From Patescibacteria group bacterium (lineage in GTDB: Bacteria; Patescibacteriota; Patescibacteriia; XYB2-FULL-38-15): a DNA stretch of 64,000 bases. How positions within the stretch are numbered: the first letter of the stretch is position 1; each line of letters opens with the position of its first letter. Positions 2,847-62,101 of this stretch are shown one piece after another. The stretch covers positions 191,061 through 255,060 of the forward strand of contig JBGSRW010000008.1 in the NCBI GenBank assembly GCA_041737355.1, read 5' to 3'. Below the pieces are notes generated by a model that saw nothing but the letters and a program-made list of their open reading frames with translations, ran no database searches and was not told where the DNA came from. Made by a program: the position numbers and the translations under genes.

Positions 2847-4601
2847 TTATTTAACGCTTTTGATTGATATATCTTCAGCTATCACTTCTGGCTCTTTCGC
2901 GGCGGAAAAATCAAAAAGATCGGTTTGTTTTTTTTCGTAACCGTCCTTAGTCACGGTAAGATAAAATTTGCTCTTACCCACCATAAAATTATACCGTCCA
3001 CGGCCGTCGGCCACCTTTGAATCGAGAAGTTTATCATAGGGCATAGCGAAAATCCGGAGAACCGCTCCCGGGACCGGTTCGTTTTCTTTTTCCGCGCGGA
3101 CCAGCCCCCAATTTTTTGGAGCTTTTACCGTAGCGAAGCGGCGGAAAAAAAGATAGACGGCAATTCCTAAAAAAAGCAAAAGACCGACGAACCAAGACGG
3201 TTTTATTATATAAGAAATAAATCCGAGGGCAGGACCGGCTAAAGCTACATATCCTTGAATTCTATGCCAGCGGTCTTTTTTAACGATCGCGGAATTTTCC
3301 AAATCTTTCGCAGTCGGATCAAGCGGGATATTCGGAGTAATCACGGCTCCTTCGGCCCCGACTTCAATCGTTTCCCCATGATATAAATCTAAATATTGAC
3401 CTTCTTCTTTTTTGCCTTTCGTGAAAACGCTTGGAAAATTAAAATTATTCTTAGCAGCTTCCAGGCGGTATTTTCCGGCAGGAACCAAAAAGGAAAAACT
3501 CCCCGCCTTGTCGGTTACTTCGCTTGCTAAAATCCTTCCGCTTTCCGCTTCGCGCAATCTGACAATAGCCAAATCCTCGGGAAGGCGCGAGAGGGAATTG
3601 TAAACCGTTCCCCAGGCTTTCCTCTTCCGTCTCCTGAATAAAAGCAGCGGCTGGCTGATAAAAAACAAAAGGTACCGCAAAAAATCGACGGAAAGAGTGG
3701 CTTGGGCGGCGAACGCCGAATTGGCTACCGCAACGGCGGCGGCGGCCGGAGCGACGCCTTTTTCGGCTATAGCTTCAACAGTCGGATTATCCAAAAAAGA
3801 ATTTCCACCGGAAGCCGAGATTCTTATTGCTACCGTTTCCCATTTTCCGGAACCTCCGGCCGAGGCGACTTTGACAAGGCCGATTCCCCTGACCCACCAC
3901 TCGTCCATAACTACACTCGTCGATGAGGCGGGAAAATTTATTGAAGGGTCTGACGTGCCGGCAGACCCTCTCCCCGACGCCGTCGGGAATTTTATCCCCG
4001 GCATAGACATATCAATGGAACTTTCTACCCTTATCTTCAGGGCCACGTAAGTGCCGGCGGGAACAGTTATTTTTTCTTCCTTGACCACCTTGTTTGTGGA
4101 TTTAACGGTCATTTTAATTCCGCCGAAACCGCCGGGCATTTCCGCTCCTTCAAATTTAGATGACATGGTATATTTAGTGGTCCAGACCGAACCAACTTTG
4201 ACGTCTTTCGGCATTAAATCCCCTTCCACACCTTCCGTATCGCTTCTCATCTCCACTCCTCCCGTTCCCGAAGTCAAATTCATGTATGTATCGGTTGTTA
4301 TACGACCGTTCTCGCAAAATAGATTTTGCGTCATTGTCATGCCTTTTTTTGTGCCGAAAATATATTCTATTTTGGCCGAGCCGGTAGCCGTTTCAAGAAC
4401 TTTCATGGTGTATGAACTTTCCCCGCCGGCTCCGGAATTTCTATATTCAATTTCGTCCCCCGCCCGGAGCGGAAAATAAGGATTATCGCACATATCTCCA
4501 GCCGCCCTGATTTTTTGAAAGGGAAAAACGAAACCGCAACAGGTAATTAGAATCACCCCCGCCAGGAAATGAAGACTTGTCTTAAGGTTCTCTTTTTTCA
4601 T
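2847..4601 (-). CDS. Secreted/membrane-anchored protein with two carboxypeptidase-regulatory-like beta-sandwich segments
   Basis: 584 aa. N-terminal signal/TM (LHFLAGVILITCCGFVF), internal TM helices. Segments like LAIVRLREAESGRILASEVTDKAGSFSFLVPAGKYRLEA and AVLRIFAMPYDKLLDSKVADGRGRYNF resemble CarbopepD_reg folds. Confidence 0.45.
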   Translation of the reverse strand: MKKENLKTSLHFLAGVILITCCGFVFPFQKIRAAGDMCDNPYFPLRAGDEIEYRNSGAGGESSYTMKVLETATGSAKIEYIFGTKKGMTMTQNLFCENGRITTDTYMNLTSGTGGVEMRSDTEGVEGDLMPKDVKVGSVWTTKYTMSSKFEGAEMPGGFGGIKMTVKSTNKVVKEEKITVPAGTYVALKIRVESSIDMSMPGIKFPTASGRGSAGTSDPSINFPASSTSVVMDEWWVRGIGLVKVASAGGSGKWETVAIRISASGGNSFLDNPTVEAIAEKGVAPAAAAVAVANSAFAAQATLSVDFLRYLLFFISQPLLLFRRRKRKAWGTVYNSLSRLPEDLAIVRLREAESGRILASEVTDKAGSFSFLVPAGKYRLEAAKNNFNFPSVFTKGKKEEGQYLDLYHGETIEVGAEGAVITPNIPLDPTAKDLENSAIVKKDRWHRIQGYVALAGPALGFISYIIKPSWFVGLLLFLGIAVYLFFRRFATVKAPKNWGLVRAEKENEPVPGAVLRIFAMPYDKLLDSKVADGRGRYNFMVGKSKFYLTVTKDGYEKKQTDLFDFSAAKEPEVIAEDISIKSVK

Positions 4602-4605
4602 AAAA

Positions 4606-5256
4606 TTATTTTTTTTCTTTTTTAAAAACCAGGTAGCTGTAAATTACTGTAATGGCGGCAGCCGATAAAACGCTTGATATTAAAACGATGAAACTTGCCA
4701 CTCCGCCAAAAAATGCGGCTAAAAAACTGATAACCCCGGCAACAGTAAAAATCTTTCCGCCGAAATAGTGCGTCTTTTTCCAATTTTCGTCGGAGACAAG
4801 CGTCCATGGGGTTCGGATACCGATGAAAAAATTCCTTTTAAGTTGCGGCAAAATCCAGCCGATAAAGCAAAAGAGCAAGGAAAGCGGGATGGCGAATACC
4901 AAATTTATTCCGGGCGGTGCGGATCGCATCGAGGCGTAAACCAAAAAGGCGTGAATGTAAATAAAGAAAAAAATCAAAAAAATCTTGAAATATCCGTACG
5001 GTTTGGCAAATGATTCATAGTTTTTCCGGAGAGGATCAACCGCCGGCAAAAAAGACATCAGAAGATAGAAGAATAAAGCTATGCCGGGCGTCAGGAATAA
5101 ATTGATATATTTCGAACCCCACCCGTCAACTTCCCCTTTAATATTCCAATGAGTGGGAACCTTGTCCGGCAAAGACGGGATAAGGACAAAACTGGAAACA
5201 AGAACGAGAAGGAGGAGGGCCAGTATCAGCCAGTCAATTTTTTTCCAAAATTTCAT
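4606..5256 (-). CDS. SdpI/YhfL-like (DUF1648) integral membrane protein
   Basis: 216 aa, 5-6 TM helices. N-terminal motif PSLPDKVPTHWNIKGEVDGWGSK is typical of the SdpI immunity-protein family. Confidence 0.55.
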   Translation of the reverse strand: MKFWKKIDWLILALLLLVLVSSFVLIPSLPDKVPTHWNIKGEVDGWGSKYINLFLTPGIALFFYLLMSFLPAVDPLRKNYESFAKPYGYFKIFLIFFFIYIHAFLVYASMRSAPPGINLVFAIPLSLLFCFIGWILPQLKRNFFIGIRTPWTLVSDENWKKTHYFGGKIFTVAGVISFLAAFFGGVASFIVLISSVLSAAAITVIYSYLVFKKEKK

Positions 5257-5888: not shown

Positions 5889-5916
5889 TTAGTGTCCATT
5901 CCGAAAGGAGGGCGAA

Positions 5917-6384
5917 ATGGCAAGTCCAAGCGCCGAAAGGCGCGAACACTGGCTCATGAACAGGTTCTACGAGAAGGTGACTGTCCTAAGGGACACGAAG
6001 TCTTGCGCAGCCAACTGGCTTGATGACTTCAGGGACAGTTTCGCGAAAATCTTCGGGGCCGACCCGACCAAGCTTTGGGATATCATGGCTTTCGACGCGG
6101 GTATTTACCTCATGCTTGAAACGGTCGGTAAGATGGAGGCCGAACGCCTCCTCCCGATGATCAGCAAATATGCCTATGAACAGGCCAAGCGTGAATGGGA
6201 CGGATCCGACGCGCGCGTCATGGTTCAGCGCGAAATGACCTTCGCTATGAACACTTCGCTGTGCGGAATCCTCGAATTCTTCAGCGCAACCCTGGATGGG
6301 CTGCCGCTCGAGAACGAAGGCGGCCGCGCCCACTGCTACAACGAGCTGGCGAAACTTTTCAGGATGATCCGGCTCTCGCGCTAG
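5917..6384 (+). CDS. Hypothetical protein (GC-rich cassette A, gene 2)
   Basis: 155-aa ORF with strong RBS. Followed by hairpin gcatcccctcgcgaggatgc plus a T-run at about 6413-6445. Confidence 0.5.
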   Translation: MASPSAERREHWLMNRFYEKVTVLRDTKSCAANWLDDFRDSFAKIFGADPTKLWDIMAFDAGIYLMLETVGKMEAERLLPMISKYAYEQAKREWDGSDARVMVQREMTFAMNTSLCGILEFFSATLDGLPLENEGGRAHCYNELAKLFRMIRLSR

Positions 6385-6456
6385 AGCCGCTACTAAAAGG
6401 AGGCAAAACAAAAAAAGCATCCCCTCGCGAGGATGCTTTCTTTTATTTTCTAAAAT

Positions 6457-14974: not shown

Positions 14975-16567
14975 TTAAATTAACTCCGTACCGGTCATCT
15001 CTCCCGGTTTCGGTACGCCTATAATTTTTAAAATCGTCGGAGCCACGTCGGCTAAAATTCCGACCGGGGAAACCAAACTCAAATCTCTCCCCGAGGTGCC
15101 TCCGGCCTGCCCTTCAAACCCCCGTCCGGCAATAACCAAAGGAACGGGATTTGTACTGTGCTCTTTGTCAATTTCACCCGTCTGCAAATTGGCTACTTCT
15201 TCGGCGTTACCATGATCGGCGGTCATCATAAGAACTCCCCCGAGAGGCAAAATTATATTTGCTATTTCTCCGACGCAAAAATCGACCGCTTCCGCCGCCT
15301 TGACCGTCGCTTCGATATTCCCGGTATGTCCGACCATATCCGCGTTGGCAAAATTAACGACAATAAAATCGTATTTTTGCGAGCTTATCGCTTTTACCAA
15401 TGAATTTTTGACTTCCGTCGCCGACATCTCGGGTTTCTGGTCGTAAGAAGCGACGCGCGGTGAGGGAATAATAATACGGTCTTCCCCGGGAAATTCCTCT
15501 TCCCTCATACCGTTGAAAAAGAATGTAACATGAGCATATTTTTCCGTTTCGGCGATATGCAGCTGTTTTAATCCCGCCTCGCTCAAAACTTTAGCCAAAC
15601 AAGTCCTGACTTCGTCCGGAGGAAAAACAACCTTGACCGGCAGGCCCTTTTCATATTCCGTCATTGTCGCAAAAAAAAGATTGTGGAATTTTTTTACTTC
15701 CGGAAATTTATCAAAATTATCGCTGACAAAAGCTTTTGTCATTTCCCTGGCGCGGTCGGCGCGATAGTTGAAAAAAACGACCGCATCGTTATCTTCTACG
15801 GTAGCGACCGGTTTTTTACGTTCAGAAATTACGACCGGAACAAATTCTTCGTCATAAACTTTTTTTTCGTAAGAATCCCTGACCGCTTTTTTAGGATCGG
15901 AAAAATAATTATCGCTTTTCCCCAAGACAATAGCCTGATATGCCTTTTCGACTCTGTCCCAACGGTTGTCCCTGTCCATGGCGTAAAAGCGTCCCGAAAG
16001 TGTCGCTATTTTTCCTACCCCGCATTCCTTTATTTTTTCCTCCAATTTTGAAATAAAATCTATGCCGCTGTTAAAAATCGTATCACGTCCGTCTAGAAAC
16101 GCATGGATAAAAACTTTTTTTATTTTTTGATCGGCGGCAAATTTTAAAAGCGCATAAAGATGTTCTATTGTTGTATGGACCTTTCCGCTGCTCACAAGCC
16201 CCATGAGATGCAAATTTGATTTGTTGTATTTCACATGTCTGGCCGCGTCAAGCAAAACCGGGTTATCAAAAAAAGAACCATCACCAATGGATTTGTTTAT
16301 TTTTGGAAGAGTTTGATAAAATATTCTGCCGGTCCCGAGATTAAGGTGGCCGACTTCCGAAGTTCCCATTTCTCCCCAGGAAAGACCTACTTCGCCGCCC
16401 GAAGCCCGGAGGGTCATTGTCGGATAATTGGCAAAAATTCTATCGATATTCGGCGTCTTGGCGAGCATGATGGCATTCCCCGGCCCCGGAGGGGCAACAC
16501 CCCATCCATCCAATATAGCCAACACCACTGGTTTCTGACTCATAGATAAATTTATATCAAAAATCAA
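14975..16567 (-). CDS. gpmI: 2,3-bisphosphoglycerate-independent phosphoglycerate mutase (copy 1)
   Basis: ILDGWGVAPPGPGNAI, TSEVGHLNLG (catalytic Ser), DGRDT. Likely true start at MSQKP (about 16540). Confidence 0.85.
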   Translation of the reverse strand: MIFDINLSMSQKPVVLAILDGWGVAPPGPGNAIMLAKTPNIDRIFANYPTMTLRASGGEVGLSWGEMGTSEVGHLNLGTGRIFYQTLPKINKSIGDGSFFDNPVLLDAARHVKYNKSNLHLMGLVSSGKVHTTIEHLYALLKFAADQKIKKVFIHAFLDGRDTIFNSGIDFISKLEEKIKECGVGKIATLSGRFYAMDRDNRWDRVEKAYQAIVLGKSDNYFSDPKKAVRDSYEKKVYDEEFVPVVISERKKPVATVEDNDAVVFFNYRADRAREMTKAFVSDNFDKFPEVKKFHNLFFATMTEYEKGLPVKVVFPPDEVRTCLAKVLSEAGLKQLHIAETEKYAHVTFFFNGMREEEFPGEDRIIIPSPRVASYDQKPEMSATEVKNSLVKAISSQKYDFIVVNFANADMVGHTGNIEATVKAAEAVDFCVGEIANIILPLGGVLMMTADHGNAEEVANLQTGEIDKEHSTNPVPLVIAGRGFEGQAGGTSGRDLSLVSPVGILADVAPTILKIIGVPKPGEMTGTELI

Positions 16568-16588
16568 AAAATTTTTTGATTTTTATTT

Positions 16589-18151
16589 TTATTCAAAAAG
16601 ACTTTTTCTCGTCATTTCTCTTGGCTGAACGATATCCATTATATCCAAAATAGTCGGGGCTACGTCGGCCAAAACTCCGTGGCGCAGCTTTCTTTTCTTT
16701 TTATTTTTAAAATTTGGCCCGGCTACAATAAGCGGCACGTGGTTAATTGAATGTTCAGTATTTATTTCTCCGGTCTTCGTATTGAGCATTTCTTCTACAT
16801 TGCCGTGGTCGGCCGTGATTATAGCCGTTCCATCCTTGCGAAAAACGCCCCTAATAATTTTCCCAACGCAAGCGTCAACCGCCCGAACCGCCTTGATGCC
16901 GGCGGCAAGGTTACCGGTATGCCCAATCATGTCCGGATTGCAAAAATTAACAGTGACAAAATCATAACGGCCGCTGTCAATACATCTTCTTACTTCGTAG
17001 GTAACGTTTTCCGCATTCATTTCCGGCTTTTCTTCGTAATGCGCCATGGGCGGAGACGGAACCCTTATTCTTTCTTCGCCATAGATAGGATCAGCGTTAC
17101 CTCCGTTAAAGAAATAAGTTATGTGGGCGTACTTTTCCGCTTCGGCAATATAAATTTGTCTCTTGTCGCGAAGCACCGCCGGCAGGGCGCTTAAAATATT
17201 GCGGGCTGGAAAAGCCGTCATAATGTGGGGCAAATCCGGACCAAAATCGGTCATGGCGGCAAAGACAATATTTTTGGCTATTTTTTTTCTTATGAACGAA
17301 CGGCTGTTTTTTTCCGTAAAATCTTTCTGGACAAAAGTTTTCGTAATTTCCCTGGCCCGGTCGGATCTCAAATTGAAAAAAATTATCACATCGTTATCCC
17401 CGATAGTCGCAATCGGCTTATGGTCGTTGGTGATAACTGTCGGAACAATAAATTCATCCGTTTCTCCGCGGTTATAGGCGGAGGCAATCGCGGCCTCGGC
17501 TGACTCGGCAATTACCCCCTGTCCCAAAACCATGGCATTGTATGCCGCCTCAATCCTTTCCCACTTCTTGATACGGTCCATGGCGTAAAAACGCCCCATT
17601 ATTGTCGCGATTTTTTCCGTACCGTGAAAATGGGCCTTTAGTTTCGGTAAAAGTTTGATAGCCGCGAATCTTGAAGAATCACGGCCGTCGGTGAAAAGAT
17701 GCAAAAATACCTTATCCGCCCCTTGCTGATTTATGAGATCGAGAACGGAATAAAGGTGGCTTGGAAAAGCGTGAGCCGACTCGCCGTTCGAAAGCAACCC
17801 CATAAGATGCACTTTTGATTTATTTTTTTGCGCGTGCTTAAGGGCTTCGATAAAAGCCGTATTTTTGAAAAAAGTACCATCTTTGATGCTTTCATTTATA
17901 TAAACCGAATCCTGCTTTACTATCCATCCGGCCGACAAATTCATATGCCCGGCTTCCGAGTTGCCTTCCTGATTCCCGGGCAAACCGGCCGCTCTCCCGT
18001 GAGCCGCGAGAAGCGCGCAGGGAAATTCATTCCAGAGTGCGGTCATCGTCGGAGTTTTCGCAAGAGTTACGGCGTTCCCCGGCCCGGGCGGCGCCACTCC
18101 CCAGCCGTCAAGTATTACAAGTACCGTAGGTTTTTTATGATTTTTGGGCAT
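16589..18151 (-). CDS. gpmI: 2,3-bisphosphoglycerate-independent phosphoglycerate mutase (copy 2, tandem paralog)
   Basis: ILDGWGVAPPGPGNAV, NSEAGHMNLS, DGRDS. About 40-50% identical to copy 1 by eye. Catalytic residues conserved. Confidence 0.85.
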   Translation of the reverse strand: MPKNHKKPTVLVILDGWGVAPPGPGNAVTLAKTPTMTALWNEFPCALLAAHGRAAGLPGNQEGNSEAGHMNLSAGWIVKQDSVYINESIKDGTFFKNTAFIEALKHAQKNKSKVHLMGLLSNGESAHAFPSHLYSVLDLINQQGADKVFLHLFTDGRDSSRFAAIKLLPKLKAHFHGTEKIATIMGRFYAMDRIKKWERIEAAYNAMVLGQGVIAESAEAAIASAYNRGETDEFIVPTVITNDHKPIATIGDNDVIIFFNLRSDRAREITKTFVQKDFTEKNSRSFIRKKIAKNIVFAAMTDFGPDLPHIMTAFPARNILSALPAVLRDKRQIYIAEAEKYAHITYFFNGGNADPIYGEERIRVPSPPMAHYEEKPEMNAENVTYEVRRCIDSGRYDFVTVNFCNPDMIGHTGNLAAGIKAVRAVDACVGKIIRGVFRKDGTAIITADHGNVEEMLNTKTGEINTEHSINHVPLIVAGPNFKNKKKRKLRHGVLADVAPTILDIMDIVQPREMTRKSLFE

Positions 18152-20576: not shown

Positions 20577-21860
20577 TTAATGTGTCGCGCAGGTCATGCA
20601 AGGATCGTAAGCGCGAACCATCATATTGATTTTCCACTTTCTGTCGCGCTCGTCTTTGACCCTCGCTTCGCTTAAATATTTTTTTAAATCGTTTTCCAAA
20701 TTGTCCAAAAATTGGGCGGTCGGCGTAATGATGTTGCAGGCGCGAATCACCCCGTATTTGTCGATTTTGTAATAATGATAAAGCGTTCCGCGCGGTGCCT
20801 CGGTGGCTGCCAGCCCTTCGCCATTTTTCATTGTATATTTCACGGATAAAATTCTTGATTTTTCCTTAAGATATTCTCCAAGCAGTTTTTTAACTTCCTC
20901 AACGCAGCTAACTAATTCCACCGCCTGGGCGTAAATATTGTGGAAAGTATTATAAGTCAAAACTTTTTCGCCCGCCGATTTTTCAAAAAACGGCAAAAAC
21001 TTTTTTGCTTCGCTGCCGAGATTTTTATGGCTCAAATTAAGCCGGGCAATCGCCCCGAGCATAAAACTTTTTCCCTCGTGGCTGGCGCGTTTTGTCGGGT
21101 CGTCTTCGGATTGTTTTTCTGAAAGTTCTTTATAAAATTCTTCCACTGAAGTTTTCGGCTGAACGCTTGAACCCATTTTCCCGTCGTAAAAAGCGTACTC
21201 GCGCGGCGAAACTAGTCCAGCAAATTCAACCTTGCGTTCGTATTTCGGATAATCAAGGGCGCGGAAAAATTTTGCCACGCTGATTGCCGCCGCCAAAACT
21301 TCATCCGCCTCGTCAATTAACTCCTGCAGCAATTTATCGTCGGGAATTTTCCGGAAACCGCCGATTTCCGTGGCTAGCAAATGCATATCGCGCCCGCCGA
21401 CCACGTCTTTTATTTTATTGCCAAAATCACGGATTAAAATAATCTGTTTGGCGAGATCTGGATATTTTTTAATCAAATCAATATCGCTCTCGTATTTAAA
21501 AAAGTCCGACAAGGACAAAAAGAAAAGATGGGCGGCGTGGCTCTGGATAGGCTCTGCTAAATCTAAAACTTTCCTTAGTCGCTCTGCCTGCGGTGTAATT
21601 TTCACGCCAAAGGCCTGCTCGATCGCCTTGATACTTGTAAGATTATGGGCGACTGAGCAGATTCCGCAGATGCGCGAAGTAACAATCGGCGCTTCGATAA
21701 AATGACGATCGAGAATTATTGACTCGATGAGCCGGGCTCCAATTTTTATTTTAATCTTGGCGCTTGTGATATCGCCCCGGAGCATATCGGCAAAAAAACT
21801 GGCGTGTCCCTCGATTTTCGCAAGATGTGAAATTTTTATTTTCATAATACTATTCCTCAA
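20577..21860 (-). CDS. hydA: [NiFe]-hydrogenase large (alpha) subunit, group 3-like
   Basis: N-terminal RICGICSVAH (RxCGxCxxxH) and C-terminal DPCMTCATH (DPCxxCxxH) Ni-Fe ligand motifs. 427 aa is typical of cytoplasmic group 3 enzymes. Confidence 0.9.
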   Translation of the reverse strand: MRNSIMKIKISHLAKIEGHASFFADMLRGDITSAKIKIKIGARLIESIILDRHFIEAPIVTSRICGICSVAHNLTSIKAIEQAFGVKITPQAERLRKVLDLAEPIQSHAAHLFFLSLSDFFKYESDIDLIKKYPDLAKQIILIRDFGNKIKDVVGGRDMHLLATEIGGFRKIPDDKLLQELIDEADEVLAAAISVAKFFRALDYPKYERKVEFAGLVSPREYAFYDGKMGSSVQPKTSVEEFYKELSEKQSEDDPTKRASHEGKSFMLGAIARLNLSHKNLGSEAKKFLPFFEKSAGEKVLTYNTFHNIYAQAVELVSCVEEVKKLLGEYLKEKSRILSVKYTMKNGEGLAATEAPRGTLYHYYKIDKYGVIRACNIITPTAQFLDNLENDLKKYLSEARVKDERDRKWKINMMVRAYDPCMTCATH

Positions 21861-24878: not shown

Positions 24879-25487
24879 CTACTTGTGGACGGCCAAGAAC
24901 CGGTAATGATCGCTCCATTCGATGCCGACCCAGAGTACGAAAAGGTGCCGCTCGTTGAGGCGCCAGTCGAGACAGGCGAAGAAGCGGCCGCCGTGCCGAT
25001 CCATGAAGTGCGAGCCGAGAGCCACGATCCCGAACTCCTTCTGGAGCTCGGGACGAGCGGCGCCGAGGGCCAAGAGCTCTTCGATCTTGGCCGGACGGAG
25101 GCCGCGACGGGCGAGTTCCGCGAGAATTTCGTCGGTCGAGGCCATCTTGTTCATGTGAACGAGGACGAGCTCGCGGAGGACCTTGCCCTCGCCCGAGATC
25201 GGGAAGAACCCGGGGGTGATGTCATCGTTCACGAAGTCGTAGCGGCCGGAGGCGATCATTGCCTCGAGGCTCTGACCATAGTCGACCTCGACCTTGAAGG
25301 TCGCGTCGGAAGGGAGGGCCGCCTTCACCATGGCGATTTCCGCCTGGCCCTTGACGAGAGGCAGCAACCGCGCGAGCAGGTCTCCTTCGGAGAGCCGCTT
25401 CACGTCGGCGTTGGTCCAGCCGTTCCGGCCGAAAGCCATTGCCAGCTCATGGGCCTGGCCAGTTGTCATCTTGAACTCGTCACTCAT
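24879..25487 (-). CDS. Hypothetical protein, paralog family member 1 (GC-rich cassette B)
   Basis: 202 aa. Shares the block GRYDFVNDDIT ... RGLRPAKIEELLALGA.RPE.QKEFGIVALGS ... RFLAV with the protein at 42762-43395. Confidence 0.5.
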   Translation of the reverse strand: MSDEFKMTTGQAHELAMAFGRNGWTNADVKRLSEGDLLARLLPLVKGQAEIAMVKAALPSDATFKVEVDYGQSLEAMIASGRYDFVNDDITPGFFPISGEGKVLRELVLVHMNKMASTDEILAELARRGLRPAKIEELLALGAARPELQKEFGIVALGSHFMDRHGGRFFACLDWRLNERHLFVLWVGIEWSDHYRFLAVHK

Positions 25488-25547
25488 GACTTGTTCTCTT
25501 TCTTTCTCGCAACCGATTCAATCCGAACCCCGTTGCTGTCTTTGGCC

Positions 25548-25564
25548 GAGAGAAATTCCCAGCC
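25548..25564 (-). promoter_or_regulatory. Conserved 17-nt leader motif (minus-strand GGCTGGGAATTTCTCTC), copy 1
   Basis: Identical 17-mer also present at 43522-43538, upstream of the paralogous gene. Lies in the 5' leader of 24879-25487. A candidate minus-strand TTGACA sits at 25597-25602. Confidence 0.4.
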
Positions 25565-25659
25565 AACGAATTATTAAATCATTCTTTGGATATTTTGTCA
25601 ACACCTTTTTAAATAAAAAAGAGCTAGCTTCAAAAGCCAGCTCAAGGAAAAGAAAAGAA

Positions 25660-26418
25660 TCAGTTGCGCTTGCCGTTCTCGGCTATCTTCCGGCAGGCGG
25701 TGAGAGTCGCTTCGGTCCAGTGTTCAAGCCGGCGCGCTTCATTGAGCGTGATGACTTCGACTACCCTGCCCCAGTGAAAAGCAACCAAGTCGCCAGCTCT
25801 GATACGCGGAATAATCTGCGGATCGCGCCGGACAAGACGCTTTTTTTCTTTTTCTTCCAGCTCTGCCAGGAATCTGTTACCCTCGTGCTTCAGAGATCTT
25901 GCCGAAACGGTAAGCTCCGGCCCCTTGCCAACCGAGACGACTTTTCCCCAGCCGATGCGACAAAGCTCCCAGCCGACCGATTCGCGATCCACCTGACCAG
26001 AAATTCCGCCGATTGCGAGAACATGAAAACTGTGGTGCGGCCGGTGCTGATAGTGGACGTGGTCCGTGGTTTCTTTCGCTGCCGCCTCGGTCATCCGGCC
26101 CTCGCCGACAAAACCGAATATCAGCTCCCTCAGATCTTCCGGCCGGACACGGCCGAGGAGTTCGTTGCCAATCCAGTAGGCGTCAACCACGCGGTCGTCA
26201 AGCCAGTCTTCGATTCCGTTTGCCGCGGCAATGAGCTTCAGGTAGGCCGTGGCCGCGGTAAACTGCCCCAAGAGCCGCCTTGCATGATTGTCGTCGACCT
26301 TGCTCTTGGTCGTGAGATACTGGTATAGCTTGCCCTTCTCACTGCCCCGCGGCCCGCAAAGGCCGAGTTCGTTCGGGTAAAGCGCGTAACGCGCCGCCCG
26401 CTCGTATTTCTTTCCCAT
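25660..26418 (-). CDS. Hypothetical His-rich protein translationally coupled to hypC (GC-rich)
   Basis: 252 aa. ATG is 1 nt after the hypC stop, and the hypC 3' end (gggggagaggaggaaaaaa) provides its RBS. Contains a His cluster HVHYQHRPHHSFH. GC-rich, unlike hypC. Confidence 0.5.
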   Translation of the reverse strand: MGKKYERAARYALYPNELGLCGPRGSEKGKLYQYLTTKSKVDDNHARRLLGQFTAATAYLKLIAAANGIEDWLDDRVVDAYWIGNELLGRVRPEDLRELIFGFVGEGRMTEAAAKETTDHVHYQHRPHHSFHVLAIGGISGQVDRESVGWELCRIGWGKVVSVGKGPELTVSARSLKHEGNRFLAELEEKEKKRLVRRDPQIIPRIRAGDLVAFHWGRVVEVITLNEARRLEHWTEATLTACRKIAENGKRN

Positions 26419-34395: not shown

Positions 34396-35364
34396 ATGGA
34401 ACAGGTTATCATATCGGGAAACGCCAACCGGCTACTGGCCGAAAAAGTGTGCGGAATTCTACACGCCAAGCTCGGCGAAGCCTGGGCAGGACGCTTTGCC
34501 GACGGAGAAGTTGATGTCGGCGTGCCCAACGTCCGCGGCAAGCATGTGGTCATCCTACAGCCGACTCCCCCGCCGGCGGAAAACTGGTTCGAAATATTCT
34601 TTATGGCCGACGCGGCCATCAGCGGTTCGGCTGAAGAAGTCACGGTCTTCATGCCCTATATGGGCTACGCCCGGCAGGATCGCAAGGACAAGCCGCACCG
34701 CCCGATTTCCGCCAGAGCCATGATTAGAATGCTTGCGGCAATGGGAGTCGACAGATTGATGACCATGGATCTCCACGCCGCCCAGATCCAGGGCTTCACT
34801 CTGCTTCCCTTTGATAATCTCTATCTCTCCTCCACTCTGCTCGAATTCCATCGGGATCTCCCCTGGAAAACCGGCGCGGTGATTGTCTCGCCCGATGCCG
34901 GCGGCGTCGGGCGGGTTAGGGCAATTGCCAAGATTCTTGGCTGCGAGATTGCCTTCATCGACAAACGCCGCGACGGACCGAACCAGTCCGAAGTGATGCA
35001 TGTCGTCGGCGAAGTCAAAGGCAAGATCGCCGTGATGTTGGACGACATGATCGACACAGCCGGCTCTCTCGTCAAGGGCGCCGAAGCGGTCATGGCCGAA
35101 GGCGCGACCGAGGTCCATGCCGTCGGTTCGCACGGCGTCCTCTCCCGGAACCAGAACCCCGAGAAGGATTCGATTGAACGGCTGAAGAAGTCGCCGCTCA
35201 AAACCCTCGTCATTTCCGATTCGCTTCTGATCCCGGAGGAAAAGCGATTCGACCGCATGCACATCGTTTCTTGCGCACCGCTCGCCGCCGAAATGATCCG
35301 GCGCGTTCACAACCGAGAACCGGTTAGCCCGCTCTTTGAGGAGGCCTTTCGCTGGGTAAAATAA
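34396..35364 (+). CDS. prs: Ribose-phosphate pyrophosphokinase (PRPP synthetase), GC-rich
   Basis: YARQDRK, DLHAAQIQGF, VSPDAGGVGRVRA, DDMIDTAGS motifs. Strong RBS aaaggaggagggtga. About 60% GC versus about 42% in adjacent prfA. Confidence 0.85.
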   Translation: MEQVIISGNANRLLAEKVCGILHAKLGEAWAGRFADGEVDVGVPNVRGKHVVILQPTPPPAENWFEIFFMADAAISGSAEEVTVFMPYMGYARQDRKDKPHRPISARAMIRMLAAMGVDRLMTMDLHAAQIQGFTLLPFDNLYLSSTLLEFHRDLPWKTGAVIVSPDAGGVGRVRAIAKILGCEIAFIDKRRDGPNQSEVMHVVGEVKGKIAVMLDDMIDTAGSLVKGAEAVMAEGATEVHAVGSHGVLSRNQNPEKDSIERLKKSPLKTLVISDSLLIPEEKRFDRMHIVSCAPLAAEMIRRVHNREPVSPLFEEAFRWVK

Positions 35365-35570
35365 CCCGGCAAAAATCAAATAGTCCGCCCGAATTTCCCC
35401 TAAAATTCGGGCTTTATTTATTATTAAGACTTGACAAACCCGCTTTTCTGTAATACCCTGAAAATATCATAAATGGTGGCCATCCCGCCAAAGAGGCGGG
35501 AAGGAAGGTGGCCCTAGACATCTGCCGATAGACGGCGGATTAAAAATAGGGAAGGTTGGAGGAGAGAGAA

Positions 35571-35831
35571 ATGTTTTTGGAGAGCCTCGGCATGGATCCG
35601 GAAACCGGTACGATCGGCGCTTCTTCGCTCGGTGCGATCCACGTCAAGAACCGGATTGACCCGGAAAAACCGCTCCGTCGCTGCCAGGAACCCGGTTGCG
35701 GTACGATTCTCCGCAGCGGCAACCCGGACAACTACTGCTCGCTGCACACCTGCTCCGAAAGGCGCGGCAAGAAGTACACCGACTCCGTCGCCCTCCGGCG
35801 CCGGAAGCGGATGCATCTCGTCCGCGTCTGA
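35571..35831 (+). CDS. Small Cys-containing (zinc-ribbon-like) hypothetical protein
   Basis: ATG at 35571 with RBS ggaggagagagaa. CQEPGCGTILRSGNPDNYCSLHTC Cys pattern. Basic C-terminus. Confidence 0.4.
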   Translation: MFLESLGMDPETGTIGASSLGAIHVKNRIDPEKPLRRCQEPGCGTILRSGNPDNYCSLHTCSERRGKKYTDSVALRRRKRMHLVRV

Positions 35832-35926
35832 CCCGCCAAAAACGTGAGAGCCGCGAGTTCGCTCGCCGGCCCTCCGTTCCCAATTCGCGACCAAGGGCTC
35901 CGTCTCCCCCCGGCCCGGCCGCGAAA

Positions 35927-35985
35927 CCCGCACAGTGTCTTGGACAAGAGTCCCACTCCTTCCAGACACTGTGCGGGTATTTTTT
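35927..35985 (+). terminator. Rho-independent terminator
   Basis: cccgcacagtgtct ... agacactgtgcggg long stem followed by TATTTTTT. Confidence 0.5.
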
Positions 35986-35988
35986 ATC

Positions 35989-36017
35989 TTGACAAATTAA
36001 ATTTTTTAAATTAAGGT
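35989..36017 (+). promoter_or_regulatory. Candidate promoter TTGACA-N17-TAAGGT
   Basis: TTGACA 35989-35994, 17-nt spacer, TAAGGT 36012-36017. Same architecture as 5860-5888. Confidence 0.35.
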
Positions 36018-36083
36018 GCGGATAGAAAGGACTTGCCAAAACAACCCCGCGAATCGCGGGCAAAAGGCAAGCGGGAGGAAGAC

Positions 36084-36584
36084 ATGGCAGACGACAAGAG
36101 GGAGAAGGCAAAGGTACTTCTGGCGGACCGCCTGCGAACCCTGCAGGCCGCCGAATTTCTGGACTTCGAGGACATCGTGCGCCACCTGCAAGGTGGCGAC
36201 AGCCTCGCCCGCACCATCGTGAATCTCGCCAAGGTTGTCGGCTTCGACAGCGTCTACGGCGATCTCTACGCCAGGGCGGTCTTCAAGGACAACGGGAAAG
36301 GAATCGTCCAGACCTGGAAGAAGGCTCTCCTGAACGAGGTCTCTCTGGTCGAGGAGCTGCTTCGCAACATCCCCAACGACGAAATCCCCCTCCTCTTCAA
36401 GTTCTGGCTCACGGAGACGCGTGAACGCGCCACCTGGGAACAGCTCGTCAACGCCACCCCTTACGCCATCCTCCGGGCCTGCGCCTCCGAGGGCGACAAG
36501 CGTGCCGACGAAGCTGCCGCTGATGCGGAAGTCGTCGACGAGGAGGTCATGGAGATCGGAGAACCCTCCGACGACGGGAAGTGA
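36084..36584 (+). CDS. Hypothetical acidic protein (GC-rich cassette C)
   Basis: ATG at 36084 with RBS gcgggaggaag. The track ORF begins at a TTG at 36033. About 166 aa, acidic C-terminal tail. Hairpin plus T-run follows at about 36606-36650. Confidence 0.45.
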   Translation: MADDKREKAKVLLADRLRTLQAAEFLDFEDIVRHLQGGDSLARTIVNLAKVVGFDSVYGDLYARAVFKDNGKGIVQTWKKALLNEVSLVEELLRNIPNDEIPLLFKFWLTETRERATWEQLVNATPYAILRACASEGDKRADEAAADAEVVDEEVMEIGEPSDDGK

Positions 36585-36671
36585 TCCGTCACGGCTATAC
36601 GAGCCGCCTCCGCCATCCGCGCAATGAGCCATTGCTCAAAGTGCGGATTTTTTTATGTTATAATTCCATTG

Positions 36672-54551: not shown

Positions 54552-54656
54552 AAAAATCAAAAACTGCTCTTTTCGGGGGCAGTTTTTGGTCTTGCTATCC
54601 CCTTCCGTGATTTCCACGGAGGGTCCGAGCCCATGGCAAAAGAAAGGAGGAACGCC

Positions 54657-54887
54657 ATGACTCGACATACTGAAACACAGGAAGAGAGCGGTCTGAGGTG
54701 CATTCACAAGAAGATCTGGGGCCAATGTGCCTGCTGCCGGGGAAAATTCGGTATGCTGGCGATCGAGTTTGACATCATACTCGGTCGGAACCAGCCGCCG
54801 GAAGTCGTCGGCAACTTGGTGGCAGAGGCCATCCGAAAGATGCGCCGAGGAAAGGAGGAAATGGAAAGACGTGGGTTCAGTCCCTAG
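54657..54887 (+). CDS. Small Cys-rich hypothetical protein (GC-rich cassette E)
   Basis: ATG at 54657 with RBS aaaggaggaacgcc. About 76 aa with a WGQCACCRGKFG Cys cluster. GC-rich. Confidence 0.35.
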   Translation: MTRHTETQEESGLRCIHKKIWGQCACCRGKFGMLAIEFDIILGRNQPPEVVGNLVAEAIRKMRRGKEEMERRGFSP

Positions 54888-55876: not shown

Positions 55877-57154
55877 TTATCCTTCTAGAATCCACTCAAA
55901 GGATTTTTTTATTTTGACATTAAAAATCTTGCCGACCATATTTTTCTTGCCAGGGAACCGAGCCATTTTCATTTCCCGGGAATTGCCAATGCATTTTCCG
56001 TCTTTATACTTATCCACGAGCACCGACACGGTTTTTCCGACATATTGCTGATTTTTCTCTAAAACAATTTTTTCCATTAAATCCTGAAGCACCCGCCAGC
56101 GCCGCTTTTTTTCAATTCGCGGAACATCGTCTTTCATTTTCGCCGCCGCTGTCCCCTGCCGCGGCGAATATACTGCGAGATATGCAATATCAAAATTGGC
56201 TTTTTTATAAAGTTCCACCGTGTTTTGAAAAGCTTTTTTTGTCTCGCCGGGAAACCCGACAATAATATCCGTGCCGAGCGCCATCCCCGGCTTTTTTTTA
56301 TTTATTTTGGCGACAAGCTTTAGGTAATCGGCAGCGGTATAACTGCGATTCATCCGTTTTAAAACTTTGTCATCCCCTGCCTGAAGCGGCAGATGGAGAT
56401 AATTCACCATCTTTGGCAAAGTCAGAGCGTCAATTACCTCATCTTTCATGTCGCGCGGATGAGGCGCGGTAAAATGAATCCGCTTGATTCCCGTAATCCG
56501 GTTTGCTTCCCAAAGCAAGGCGGCAAAAGGATGTTTATATGGATTTTTTTTGGAAAAATTTTTTATATCGGCCGGCCGGTAGGCATTAACATTCTGCCCC
56601 AAAAAAGTTATTTCCAAACAGCCGTTTTTTGCTAAATTTTTCACTTCGGCGAGGATCTCGGAAACGTCGCGGCTCGTTTCCCTTCCCCGGACATAAGGCA
56701 CGGCGCAGTACGAACAAAAATTATTGCAGCCGGTCATAATCGGAATAAAAGCGGAATACTGCGTTGAATATCTCGGCTCGATTTTAAAATAATGAGTATT
56801 CCAATCGCGGCATTCGGCCTGAAAGGCTTTGATATTGGTAATCTGTTTGATATCCAAAACCGCGTCAAATTTTCCCAAAAACTTTTTCTTGTCCGCAGGC
56901 AAAAGGCAGCCGGTCAGAATCGTGAAAAGCCCGGGCTTTGTCCGTTTCATTTTGGCAAAAATCCGGGCCTGGCCGTAGATCCTGTCAACCGCCGCCTGGC
57001 GCACGGAACAGGCCACCACAACGATTAAATCGGCCTCAGAGGCCTCACTGACCGACCCATAGCCCATTTTCTCCAAAACCGTCGCCACCCGCTCAGAGTC
57101 GCTTTTATTCATTTGGCAGCCGTAGGTGATAATGTGGTATTTTTTCTTAGCCAT
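55877..57154 (-). CDS. miaB: tRNA-i6A37 methylthiotransferase (radical SAM)
   Basis: YHIITYGCQMNKSDSE UPF0004 N-terminal domain, CNNFCSYCAVPYVRG radical-SAM CxxxCxxC, C-terminal TRAM. Confidence 0.85.
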   Translation of the reverse strand: MAKKKYHIITYGCQMNKSDSERVATVLEKMGYGSVSEASEADLIVVVACSVRQAAVDRIYGQARIFAKMKRTKPGLFTILTGCLLPADKKKFLGKFDAVLDIKQITNIKAFQAECRDWNTHYFKIEPRYSTQYSAFIPIMTGCNNFCSYCAVPYVRGRETSRDVSEILAEVKNLAKNGCLEITFLGQNVNAYRPADIKNFSKKNPYKHPFAALLWEANRITGIKRIHFTAPHPRDMKDEVIDALTLPKMVNYLHLPLQAGDDKVLKRMNRSYTAADYLKLVAKINKKKPGMALGTDIIVGFPGETKKAFQNTVELYKKANFDIAYLAVYSPRQGTAAAKMKDDVPRIEKKRRWRVLQDLMEKIVLEKNQQYVGKTVSVLVDKYKDGKCIGNSREMKMARFPGKKNMVGKIFNVKIKKSFEWILEG

Positions 57155-57192: not shown

Positions 57193-57220
57193 TTGACAAA
57201 TTAGCATTATCATGTAAAAT
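57193..57220 (+). promoter_or_regulatory. Candidate promoter TTGACA-N16-TAAAAT
   Basis: TTGACA 57193-57198, TAAAAT 57215-57220. RBS gaaaggagtg and ATG at 57247. Confidence 0.4.
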
Positions 57221-57246
57221 AGAGAGTTCCCGAAAGGAGTGTTCCG

Positions 57247-57627
57247 ATGGGCGAAGTTCACGGGCTCTTCCAGGACGCCCGTTACAACCGGGCGATGTTC
57301 GAGAGAATCGCTGCCGTGAGCCTTACCGAAATCAACGGCAGAATGGCTCTGCGGCTCGACCTTTCAACTGGCGATCTGCATCTTGACTGGCTGAACAGCG
57401 TACCAACTTACCGCTTCGTCATTGACAATGGCGCGCGGATTCTCGAAGGAAAGCACTGGCATATCTTCCGGCACGAACCGGAACCGCCTTACTTCGTTGA
57501 AGTTAGACTGCAAAATCTCTCTACGAGGGCCAAGGAGGAAACCCTCGGAGACTGGACCACGCTGCAAGTCGTGATCCAAGCTGATGGAAACGTCGAAAAG
57601 CATTTCGAGGTCAAGAAGGCCTCGTAG
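57247..57627 (+). CDS. Hypothetical protein (GC-rich cassette F)
   Basis: 126-aa ORF. GC-rich. No recognisable motif. Confidence 0.45.
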   Translation: MGEVHGLFQDARYNRAMFERIAAVSLTEINGRMALRLDLSTGDLHLDWLNSVPTYRFVIDNGARILEGKHWHIFRHEPEPPYFVEVRLQNLSTRAKEETLGDWTTLQVVIQADGNVEKHFEVKKAS

Positions 57628-57632
57628 ACTCC

Positions 57633-57674
57633 GGGACCAACTGCGCAAGACCGCTTTTGGTCCCGTTTTATTTT
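57633..57674 (+). terminator. Rho-independent terminator
   Basis: gggaccaa-ctgcgcaagaccgct-ttggtccc followed by GTTTTATTTT. Confidence 0.55.
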
Positions 57675-57751
57675 ATCCTTGACTTTTCGGCTTAAATATG
57701 GTATATTTATATGTTATAATTTAATAAACTTTATTATAAAAAATAATTATT

Positions 57752-58996
57752 ATGCGCGCTGAAATGAGTCCAGATTTACAAAAACAAATTACGCCCGAAG
57801 CCAAAGAAGCCGTTGCGCAAATCGACGGAGCAACCGAATCTTCGGAAAGCCATCCCGACCATAATGAAGATCGGGCCTTTTTCAATCAAGAAAAAAAGAC
57901 GATTGGCGTTCTGGACGGCGCCGGCGGCGGCATGGCCGGTGAAAAAGCCAGCGATTTAGCCGCTAAAATTGTTTCGCGGGAATTAAAAAAAATACCCGAT
58001 GGCGCCAGCGCAATCGATTGCCGTAAGGCCATCTCCTCGATTCTTGAGAGCGCCCACCAGTCCGTACTGAATCTTGGTAATAATGAGTTTTTCCAATATT
58101 TGGACCGCGATGCCTGGAAGCAGGACACCGGCAACCTCTTGTGGGATGACCCCGCTCAAATAGACGCGGAAATAGCAAAAACCGGATGGAAACCAAAAAT
58201 TTCAGCAGCCGATAAATTCAAGGGGAAACCGCAGGATGAAATTTTTAAAGCGCAAGAAGCGGCGGGATTTACTACGCCCACTGCAACAACTGCTTCAATA
58301 GCAAAATTATTTGAACGTCCCGGCGGCAAAACCGAGATGGTTTACGGGCATATCGGCGACAGCCGTATTTACGTCCTAAAAAAAGACGGGAAAATAAAAC
58401 AAATTACCCAGGATCAGGGCGGATTCGAGGAGGCCATAAAACATAAAATTATAACAAAAGACGAGGCTGAAGTTCTCGATCAATCTTCCGACCAAAAAAT
58501 TCTGGAAAAAAAATTCGGCAAAGACAGGGCCGAAGTTTTGCAGGCCTATTTTCCGCAACTCAGACGGTCGGTTACTCAAGAACTTGGCTTAACAAAGGAA
58601 ATCACCCCCCAAATCGGTACGGTTGATCTGGAGCCGGGCGACCGGGTTCTTTTCACTTCCGACGGAATCCACGACAACCTGACCAACCAGGAAATAGAAC
58701 AACTCCTGAAAAGCGGCAGCTCGACCGAAGCGGCGCAAAAAATTGTCGATTCGGCAAAAAAACGGGTAGCGGAAGGGACGATGCGATCGAAAAGAGACGA
58801 CAAAACGGCTATTGTCATGGATGTTCCTGAGGCAATAGAGGAAATTTCTGCCGAGGATATAACCGAAGAACCGGAAGAGATTGTTGAATTAGGAGAGGAA
58901 GACGTTGAGGCCGTCCCGATTGAAGTTATGGAAGCCGAGGACAAAAGAAAAAGCGAGAAAAAAATAAAAGAAATAAGAAAAGCAATTGGACTATAA
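57752..58996 (+). CDS. PP2C-family Ser/Thr protein phosphatase with large insertion and acidic C-terminal tail
   Basis: GVLDGAGGGMAGEKAS (PP2C motif 2-like), GHIGDSRIYVL, FTSDGIHDNL. About 120-aa insertion between motifs. E-rich tail. Confidence 0.65.
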   Translation: MRAEMSPDLQKQITPEAKEAVAQIDGATESSESHPDHNEDRAFFNQEKKTIGVLDGAGGGMAGEKASDLAAKIVSRELKKIPDGASAIDCRKAISSILESAHQSVLNLGNNEFFQYLDRDAWKQDTGNLLWDDPAQIDAEIAKTGWKPKISAADKFKGKPQDEIFKAQEAAGFTTPTATTASIAKLFERPGGKTEMVYGHIGDSRIYVLKKDGKIKQITQDQGGFEEAIKHKIITKDEAEVLDQSSDQKILEKKFGKDRAEVLQAYFPQLRRSVTQELGLTKEITPQIGTVDLEPGDRVLFTSDGIHDNLTNQEIEQLLKSGSSTEAAQKIVDSAKKRVAEGTMRSKRDDKTAIVMDVPEAIEEISAEDITEEPEEIVELGEEDVEAVPIEVMEAEDKRKSEKKIKEIRKAIGL

Positions 58997-60919: not shown

Positions 60920-62101
60920 TTATTTTTTAATTATTACCGTAACGTTATTTTTCAGTTGCGGAACTTTTTTAACCCAGAACGGAGAAAATTTTATAGTTAT
61001 TCTTTCTATTTCCGGATAAGTGGAAAGGTACTGGATAATCTGTTCCCTGTCGAGGCCAATAAATTTTTCCGTATCGAAAATCGAATTATTGGTTTTGAGG
61101 GACATCTCTCCTTCGAGGTGAACCATAATATTCGCTTCATTGGTAGCCAGATCGTATTTTTCAACTACGAAAGTAAGGGCGTTGTAATCGACATCCGCCA
61201 ATTCCTTACCGGTCGGAACTTTCGCCTGTATTTGACTCGCGGCCAGACCTTCCAGATCCCGCCTGTAAAAAGCTATTCCTACCACTTTTAATTTCATGAT
61301 GACGGTAAAAGTATCCCCTTCCTCCCCCGCTCCGAGACTGCTGCGCTTTTCATTTATCTCCTTAATCATAACTTTGCCAAAAACTTCGCCTGCAGCTTTC
61401 ATTTCTTTTTTCAGACCGTCTATAACTTGGGCTGAAAGAGCTTGAGTCAAATCGTTATACGCGTTATCCAGATCGGCTTCGGTAACAAACTTAACTTCCT
61501 TGCTCCCTCCGCTCATCGAAACCGAACTTTGGGCATAAATTTTATCCTGGAGACCGGACCATAGGCCGGGGATTGTGAAACTTGTCGGCCCGAGTTTCAT
61601 TGCTTCCTCGCTGGGTTGGTCGGCATAGACCTCTCCTTCAACCCTTCCTCCTGCCGGCACGGTAACCGATTTTTTCAAACGGTAAAGAATCCCTTCTTTG
61701 GAAAGAAAACGGGTTGTGGCAACCAACGGCTGATCCTTGCTGTAATTATTTATGATTGTAATTTTTCCCCCAACCTGGCTCTCAATCGTCTTTTTCCCGC
61801 TCGCCGGATATTCCTTGCTCCCGGAAACGGTTGTCTCGACTAACTGGCCGTCGATTGAAACAGAGCCGGGGGTTCTTACCGCCGGGATGCCGGCCTCGCC
61901 CCCCGTCTTTTTGAGATCAGCAATAAAATCGACGCTAACCGGTTCTTTCGCCAGGGAAATTGTTATTTCCGCCTTGCTTAAAACAAAATAAACCGCCAGT
62001 ACGACCAAAACTCCCGTCAGGGCTATAAATCCAAAAGCTATTTTTCTGTAAAATTTCACCGGCGCCTCCGATTTTGGCGGAGTCTTCGTTTTAGTTACCA
62101 T
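60920..62101 (-). CDS. Hypothetical membrane-anchored extracytoplasmic protein
   Basis: 393 aa. N-terminal TM (IAFGFIALTGVLVVLAVYFVL). No recognisable domain. Confidence 0.4.
   Translation of the reverse strand: MVTKTKTPPKSEAPVKFYRKIAFGFIALTGVLVVLAVYFVLSKAEITISLAKEPVSVDFIADLKKTGGEAGIPAVRTPGSVSIDGQLVETTVSGSKEYPASGKKTIESQVGGKITIINNYSKDQPLVATTRFLSKEGILYRLKKSVTVPAGGRVEGEVYADQPSEEAMKLGPTSFTIPGLWSGLQDKIYAQSSVSMSGGSKEVKFVTEADLDNAYNDLTQALSAQVIDGLKKEMKAAGEVFGKVMIKEINEKRSSLGAGEEGDTFTVIMKLKVVGIAFYRRDLEGLAASQIQAKVPTGKELADVDYNALTFVVEKYDLATNEANIMVHLEGEMSLKTNNSIFDTEKFIGLDREQIIQYLSTYPEIERITIKFSPFWVKKVPQLKNNVTVIIKK

Follow-up and report, generated by a model that had tools for sequence, protein, structure and literature searches.

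The gene orf126, which encodes 126 amino acids in a 64-kb stretch of DNA from a Patescibacteria group bacterium (the whole 64,000 nt are called the window below), is a resident orphan inherited by vertical transmission rather than a cassette that was inserted. With a probability of roughly 55%, it is an ordinary, uncharacterised stand-alone gene that has long been fixed in a Falkowbacteria-like lineage, and for which we infer strong expression and a partnership with the PP2C phosphatase encoded downstream. Its mildly unusual trait is a conserved “expression” signature, i.e. a high GC3 combined with a Shine-Dalgarno (SD) motif, in an SD-poor, AT-leaning genome.

The original prediction had described a unit of promoter, ribosome-binding site, GC-rich open reading frame, and terminator, and all four elements were confirmed at the positions claimed, on the forward strand. 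The putative sigma-70-type promoter (57193–57220) consists of the −35 box TTGACA (57193–57198), a spacer of 16 nt, and the −10 box TAAAAT (57215–57220). It matches the consensus at 11 of 12 positions, which makes it the top-scoring site between 54 and 60 kb; on both strands of the 64-kb window, only four sites reach at least 11/12, whereas a first-order Markov simulation predicts 0.47 on average. The orthologous position is conserved across ten aligned loci, and the −35 sequence TTGACAA is identical in 10/10 of them. The leader of about 20 nt, which on its own forms only weak hairpins (−2 to −3 kcal/mol), carries the strong SD sequence CCGAAAGGAG (57230–57239), with the ribosome-binding site AAAGGAG (57233–57239) located 7 nt upstream of the ATG at 57247. 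The ORF (57247–57627) has a GC content of 0.546 and a GC3 of 0.661, and it encodes a soluble protein ending in EVKKAS. It is followed by a predicted Rho-independent (intrinsic) terminator (57632–57676) with a G+C-rich stem of 9 bp, an inner stem of 3 bp, and a U-run. The hairpin (57632–57665) has a folding energy of −21 kcal/mol (z = −4.55; 0/200 shuffled sequences fold as well) and precedes UUUUAUUUUA. Across the ten loci, 89.5% of the cells in the terminator helix are paired, compared with 28–59% in slid controls, and three pairs have changed on both sides, i.e. in a compensatory manner. The −10 box, the SD core GAAAGGAG, and the terminator are conserved among the related loci just as the −35 box is, and the view that orf126 is a complete, self-contained transcription unit is thus supported.

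The neighbourhood of this unit is constant. Upstream and divergently oriented lies miaB, encoding a radical-SAM methylthiotransferase (55877–57154, reverse strand), and downstream lies a gene (57752–58996, forward strand) for a PP2C Ser/Thr phosphatase that resembles Stp1/IreP and has an acidic tail at its C-terminus. The order miaB(−)/orf(+) > PP2C(+)/thrS(−) was found in every locus with a sufficiently long contig, and the longer contigs additionally share gatB and miaA upstream as well as genes for a 393-aa and a TSP3/PKD protein downstream. The comparison comprises ten independent loci with readable context (L001/L002/L003, L005, L006, L011, L014, L015, L016, L017/L018, and L019). DNA scans of genomes and metagenomes added no new loci, as L009 is the L006 contig and L010, which contains a 92%-identical copy, is evidently the P0001 contig. 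The orthologues in the slot between miaB and the PP2C gene have protein identities between about 27% and 92%, and hhalign places the 124-aa ORF of L019 in the family (probability 100%, E = 9e-41). orf126 and the genes that flank it have diverged to a comparable degree: between the window and L005, the identities are 58% for the orf, 55% for PP2C, and 57% for thrS, and between L005 and L006 they are 73% for the orf and 74% for PP2C.

Protein identities across the region also form a mosaic. Compared with L001, the window shows 92% for the orf, 90% for miaB, 73% for PP2C, and 70% for thrS, and compared with L006 it shows 91% for miaB, 63% for the orf, and 55% for PP2C. This mosaic divergence from miaA to thrS indicates homologous-recombination breakpoints on either side of orf126 within the population. 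L006 contains extra sequence between miaB and the orf promoter (about 4460–4840; columns 21–290 of alignment A2), which includes a duplicated miaB 5′ end (GGCAGCCGTAAGT..ATGTG.TATTT) and resembles the product of either a local rearrangement or a small insertion that duplicated its target.

The GC content of the window is 0.458, and the GC3 values of miaA, miaB, PP2C, thrS, and gatB lie between 0.43 and 0.52. The high GC3 of orf126 is shared by its relatives: in nine loci, the family has values of 0.50–0.70, compared with 0.26–0.52 for the neighbouring genes. The excess is present even at L005, where the GC content of the locus is 38%, and the offset persists in all genomes, which span 38 to 46% GC. 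Pooled over nine members, the third position is C with a frequency of 0.387 vs. 0.186 and G with a frequency of 0.246 vs. 0.218, so that C accounts for most of the excess. Accordingly, in the pooled codons the family uses TTC (83% vs. 20% in the comparison genes), TAC (89% vs. 25%), AAC (67% vs. 25%), and ATC (63% vs. 18%), and never TTA (0% vs. 26%). Because the forward strand is C-rich here, a further control used PP2C alone, which is encoded on that strand too. The C/(C+T) ratio at two-fold pyrimidine codons is 0.57–0.82 for the orf and 0.27–0.47 for PP2C, with Fisher p values from 8e-3 to 1e-5 in 8/9 loci.

In bacteria, highly expressed genes under translational selection favour NNC over NNU at two-fold pyrimidine codons and show reduced synonymous divergence. 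In the window, the C/(C+T) values of the genes for L11, L1, and NusG are 0.62–0.65, those of ordinary forward-strand genes are about 0.45–0.55, and that of orf126 is 0.74. The preference of orf126 for C-ending codons points in the direction of L11/L1/NusG, and its dS below that of its neighbours is a second likeness to highly expressed genes. In contrast, AAG represents 51% of the Lys codons in the family (5/5 in orf126 of the window) and 22% in L11/L1/NusG, the family also prefers GAG and CTN, which the latter do not, and it avoids TTG, which they use. The pattern is therefore not merely an exaggerated ribosomal-protein pattern, and a general pressure towards GC is also at work. A tRNA scan of the window found no tRNA gene.

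In the flanking genes, synonymous substitutions have reached saturation for most of the genome pairs compared (dS from >1 to unmeasurable). At such distances a passively carried foreign composition should have decayed, and the GC bias of orf126 has therefore been maintained. Between the window and L001, dS is 0.195 for orf126, in contrast to 0.74–2.1 in the flanks; this low value is close to how far the neighbouring spacer has diverged and may stem from a recent recombination tract instead of selection on codons. Judged from the sequences compared, the GC-richness of orf126 is an inherited and maintained property of its synonymous sites (C-ending codons together with AAG, GAG, and CTN), and not a mark of recent import.

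Two explanations invoke a foreign origin, and they differ in the age of the event. That horizontal transfer recently placed a foreign mini-cassette in the interval from miaB to the PP2C gene, as an extension of the insertion proposed at the outset, is now hardly credible. The composition is indeed atypical (GC 0.546 vs. 0.458; GC3 0.66 vs. about 0.47), the unit is self-contained, further GC-rich small ORFs lie between the housekeeping genes, and the content of the miaA/miaB gap varies between strains. However, the GC3 excess follows each genome at a constant offset, and, as all relatives share it, it cannot serve as a marker of recent transfer. The synteny check speaks against an insertion as well: orf126 occupies the same slot in all ten loci, down to about 27% identity, an empty site was seen in none of the loci read, and its divergence is similar in order to that of its neighbours. 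The genes next to it are miaB and PP2C, not an integrase or a transposase gene, direct repeats flanking the unit were not found, and the sole notable inverted repeat is the terminator. Homologues were detected neither in phage records nor outside the lineage among 1.84 billion representatives. The original prediction had named conservation beside the PP2C gene at GC parity in related genomes as evidence against itself; the conserved adjacency is there, the GC parity is not. An acquisition that was ancient, into the ancestor of the lineage and from a GC-richer, SD-using donor (a host or a mobile element), with a composition that is not fully ameliorated, is unlikely, although several observations would fit it, and it might extend to the whole GC-rich, SD-bearing class of genes. 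Strong SDs are rare in the genome and enriched among GC-rich ORFs (4/10 vs. 7/62), the enrichment of AAG, GAG, and CTN is unlike that of the native ribosomal-protein genes, and exact copies of the 10-mer CCGAAAGGAG exist at just two places in the window, 16–17 nt upstream of the ATG of the GC-rich orphans orf155 and orf126. The lineage also contains more GC-rich small ORFs, some of them variably present membrane proteins, for which a shared foreign ancestry is possible. Against it stand the decay expected of an unselected composition under saturated flank dS, the offset that every genome keeps over the range of 38 to 46% GC, and the lack of a donor homologue in any database searched.

The resident gene orf126 is not the only GC-rich ORF of the region. 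Small ORFs (65–91 aa) between gatB, miaA, and miaB have GC contents of 0.50–0.61 and GC3 values of 0.59–0.72; such small GC-rich ORFs are found at 54633–54887 of the window and at L017 2592–2837, L019 2472–2711, L001 3502–4295, L002 971–2054, L003 450–1533, and L006 2063–2477. The position between gatB and miaA is constantly occupied by a gene for a CxxC...CxxC protein, and the gap between miaA and miaB is strain-variable, with no (window), two (L001), or four (L002/L003) small genes, mostly for membrane proteins. A second unit of similar build lies at 5890–6450, comprising the promoter TTGACAAAA, the sequence CCGAAAGGAGG, an ORF of 155 aa (orf155, 5917–6384; GC3 0.74), and a terminator. As a candidate relative of orf126, orf155 was rejected (hhalign probability 0.1%). 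Strong SDs are carried by few genes, i.e. orf126, orf155, prs (34396–35364; GC3 0.71), the 393-aa gene (60920–62101), and orf84. Larger GC-rich stretches extend over 24922–26328, with ORFs at 24922–25158 (GC3 0.82) and 25294–26328 (0.63), and over 34396–36632, with prs (0.71) and ORFs at 35514–35969 and 36006–36632 (0.59–0.66); a Pfam search with the ORFs of these two stretches yielded no match except prs. Elsewhere in the window, pgk has as neighbours two tandemly arranged paralogous genes for cofactor-independent phosphoglycerate mutase (14975–18151), and a gene resembling those for the large subunit of NiFe-hydrogenases is present (20577–21860).

The protein had been said to have no recognisable motif, and this was borne out by the absence of matches above threshold in Pfam, PHROGs, PADLOC, and NCBIfam. 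Fifteen family members yielded nothing above threshold in Pfam, sequence and profile searches of the PDB with orf126 returned no match, tblastn against phage records found no homologue, and a full-text literature search retrieved nothing relevant. When 5.8 billion proteins were searched with a word index, seven clusters with 92–58% identity were detected, all of 124–127 aa, and a HMMER profile scan that covered all 1.84 billion representatives contributed only seven further full-length ones (127–139 aa), with no homologue outside this lineage. After a final profile search of the 5.8 billion proteins, the family comprises about 28 clusters, with proteins of 124–164 aa; the named members stem from MAGs designated “Patescibacteria group bacterium” and “Candidatus Falkowbacteria bacterium”. 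As far as these databases reach, the family is confined to Falkowbacteria-like Patescibacteria. The dN/dS ratio is 0.18–0.22 in four pairwise comparisons, and with a value of about 0.2 orf126 is a real protein gene under purifying selection. The members have neither signal peptides nor transmembrane segments and are soluble, with GRAVY values of −0.2 to −0.6 and a pI mostly between 5 and 7.

An AlphaFold2 model based on an alignment of 28 sequences (pLDDT 87.6, pTM 0.82) contains helices at residues 2–8 and 11–19, followed by eight strands and a short helix at 46–51. The predicted fold is thus an N-terminal helical hairpin joined to an Ig-like β-sandwich of eight strands. In the model, the two-sheet Greek-key sandwich can be superposed on known Ig/FnIII domains, and the closest folds are generic Ig-like/FnIII-like sandwiches, i.e. 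domains of the S-layer protein SbsC (4uj6/2ra1) and accessory domains of pullulanases. The helical hairpin carries the motif F-x-D-G-R-L/F-x-R-x-x-L-x-R-I, and the residues F8, R15, L18, R20, I21, L35, W48, G62, W103, T105, L106, A112, G114, K118, and F120 are invariant or nearly so. A C-terminal Ser is present in 25 of the 28 members, nearly all of which end in E-[VI]-K-x-[TAI]-S. In most members, a linker of 10–15 aa precedes a conserved EVKETS tail; this linker is absent from the subgroup of the window. Two proteins of 164 aa (P0109 and P0112) contain the helix motif, in the form V-x-I-F-A-D-G-Q-L-H-R-x-x-L-D-R-I, as a tandem duplicate, which suggests that it may be an independent functional module. 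Taken together, orf126 defines a small, previously unnamed protein family of generic fold.

With respect to expression, the SD motif is absent from 52 of 62 ordinary ORFs in the window, including the genes for L11, L1, and NusG, whereas orf126 has AAGGAG. The mRNA is predicted to fold better than synonymous-codon shuffles, with a mean z of −1.80 and negative values in 10/10 homologues, compared with a mean of −0.52 for PP2C control segments (n = 24); the signal is moderate, and the z-scores ignore the phylogeny of the ten homologues. The promoter, the rare SD, the strong terminator, the preference for NNC codons as in L11/L1/NusG, and the mRNA folding suggest strong expression and a stable message, and orf126 probably encodes an autonomous, strongly expressed, lineage-specific small cytoplasmic protein. 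It is very improbable that the GC-rich stretch has instead been shaped by a function at the RNA level, i.e. by an antisense product or by a transcript that is structured or has two functions. The better folding in all homologues and the reduced synonymous divergence would agree with such a function; however, the protein signal is clear (the low dN/dS, a confident AlphaFold2 fold, and conserved residues), an Rfam scan in and near the ORF was empty, the z-score against dinucleotide shuffles is just −1.9 with the terminator included, no alternative frame is consistently open, and the hairpins of the 5′ leader are weak.

The PP2C gene has a separate predicted promoter (57679–57707, forward strand; TTGACT-17-TATATT, TG-extended), which is conserved in all loci. 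The region 57679–57751 also contains another TGTTATAAT box and a long leader that is A/T-rich and lacks an SD, both conserved across loci. In view of this promoter and of the terminator of orf126, the two genes form separate transcription units. The closest known systems are partners encoded next to PP2C phosphatases, i.e. STAS anti-anti-sigma factors with RsbU/SpoIIE and FHA proteins with phosphatases of the Stp1/PstP type. The likeness consists in the size of about 120 aa, the location directly upstream of PP2C on the same strand, and the conserved tail containing Ser/Thr. For STAS, no match was found for 15 family members at E ≤ 1, and the α/β fold with alternating strands and four helices is not present in orf126; for FHA, neither the sequence profile nor the 11-strand sandwich was found. 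No kinase gene was detected among the neighbours scanned, and the nearest non-orthologous PP2C gene (L021) has a different context without a comparable ORF upstream.

Our best guess is that orf126 may be a protein-binding module that docks on PP2C, or is dephosphorylated by it, via its Thr/Ser tail. The evidence for this link is adjacency and motif conservation, in a clade in which the whole 12-kb region is syntenic and recombination breakpoints lie between the ORF and PP2C. It is unlikely that orf126 is an abundant lineage-specific protein that has nothing to do with the phosphatase, e.g. a ribosome- or translation-associated factor or a structural one, and that the adjacency is merely inherited gene order. 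This would be in accord with the collinearity from gatB to the TSP3/PKD gene, which gives adjacency little weight, with the separate promoters and the strong terminator between the two genes, and with the translation-related neighbours miaA, miaB, gatB, and thrS. On the other hand, no RNA-binding or ribosomal fold was matched, and the family has a pI of about 5–7. A more elaborate scenario, which we consider doubtful, would assign orf126 to a class of expression-optimised small genes that are GC3-rich, have their own promoter and terminator, and bear an SD (orf126, orf155, and the CxxC protein between gatB and miaA), and would make its product an abundant Ig-like adaptor whose K-x-T/A-S tail is phosphorylated and reset by PP2C.

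In the reading that we favour, i.e. an ordinary stand-alone gene, orf126 would have been fixed long ago in one Falkowbacteria-like lineage of Patescibacteria. The near-consensus promoter of its own, the short leader with the strong SD, and the efficient terminator would drive its constitutive, strong expression, and together with a stable message this would yield an abundant small protein. According to the structural model, the protein is a single Ig-like domain to which a helical handle and a conserved tail are attached, and it would most likely bind another protein. The best candidate partner would be the Stp1-like PP2C always encoded downstream, and the tail might be a docking or phospho-acceptor site.

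These results show that, in such reduced genomes, GC-richness combined with a separate promoter and terminator is not sufficient reason to regard a gene as inserted; in the case of orf126, the atypical composition is inherited and has been maintained across saturated divergence. Most lineage-specific proteins of Patescibacteria are unexplained, and the orf126 family of about 28 clusters, with its predicted fold, its conserved motifs, and its fixed address beside PP2C, offers a concrete target. The co-occurrence of strong SDs and GC3-rich codons on a few small orphans in a largely SD-less genome may aid gene calling and the prediction of expression in the CPR.
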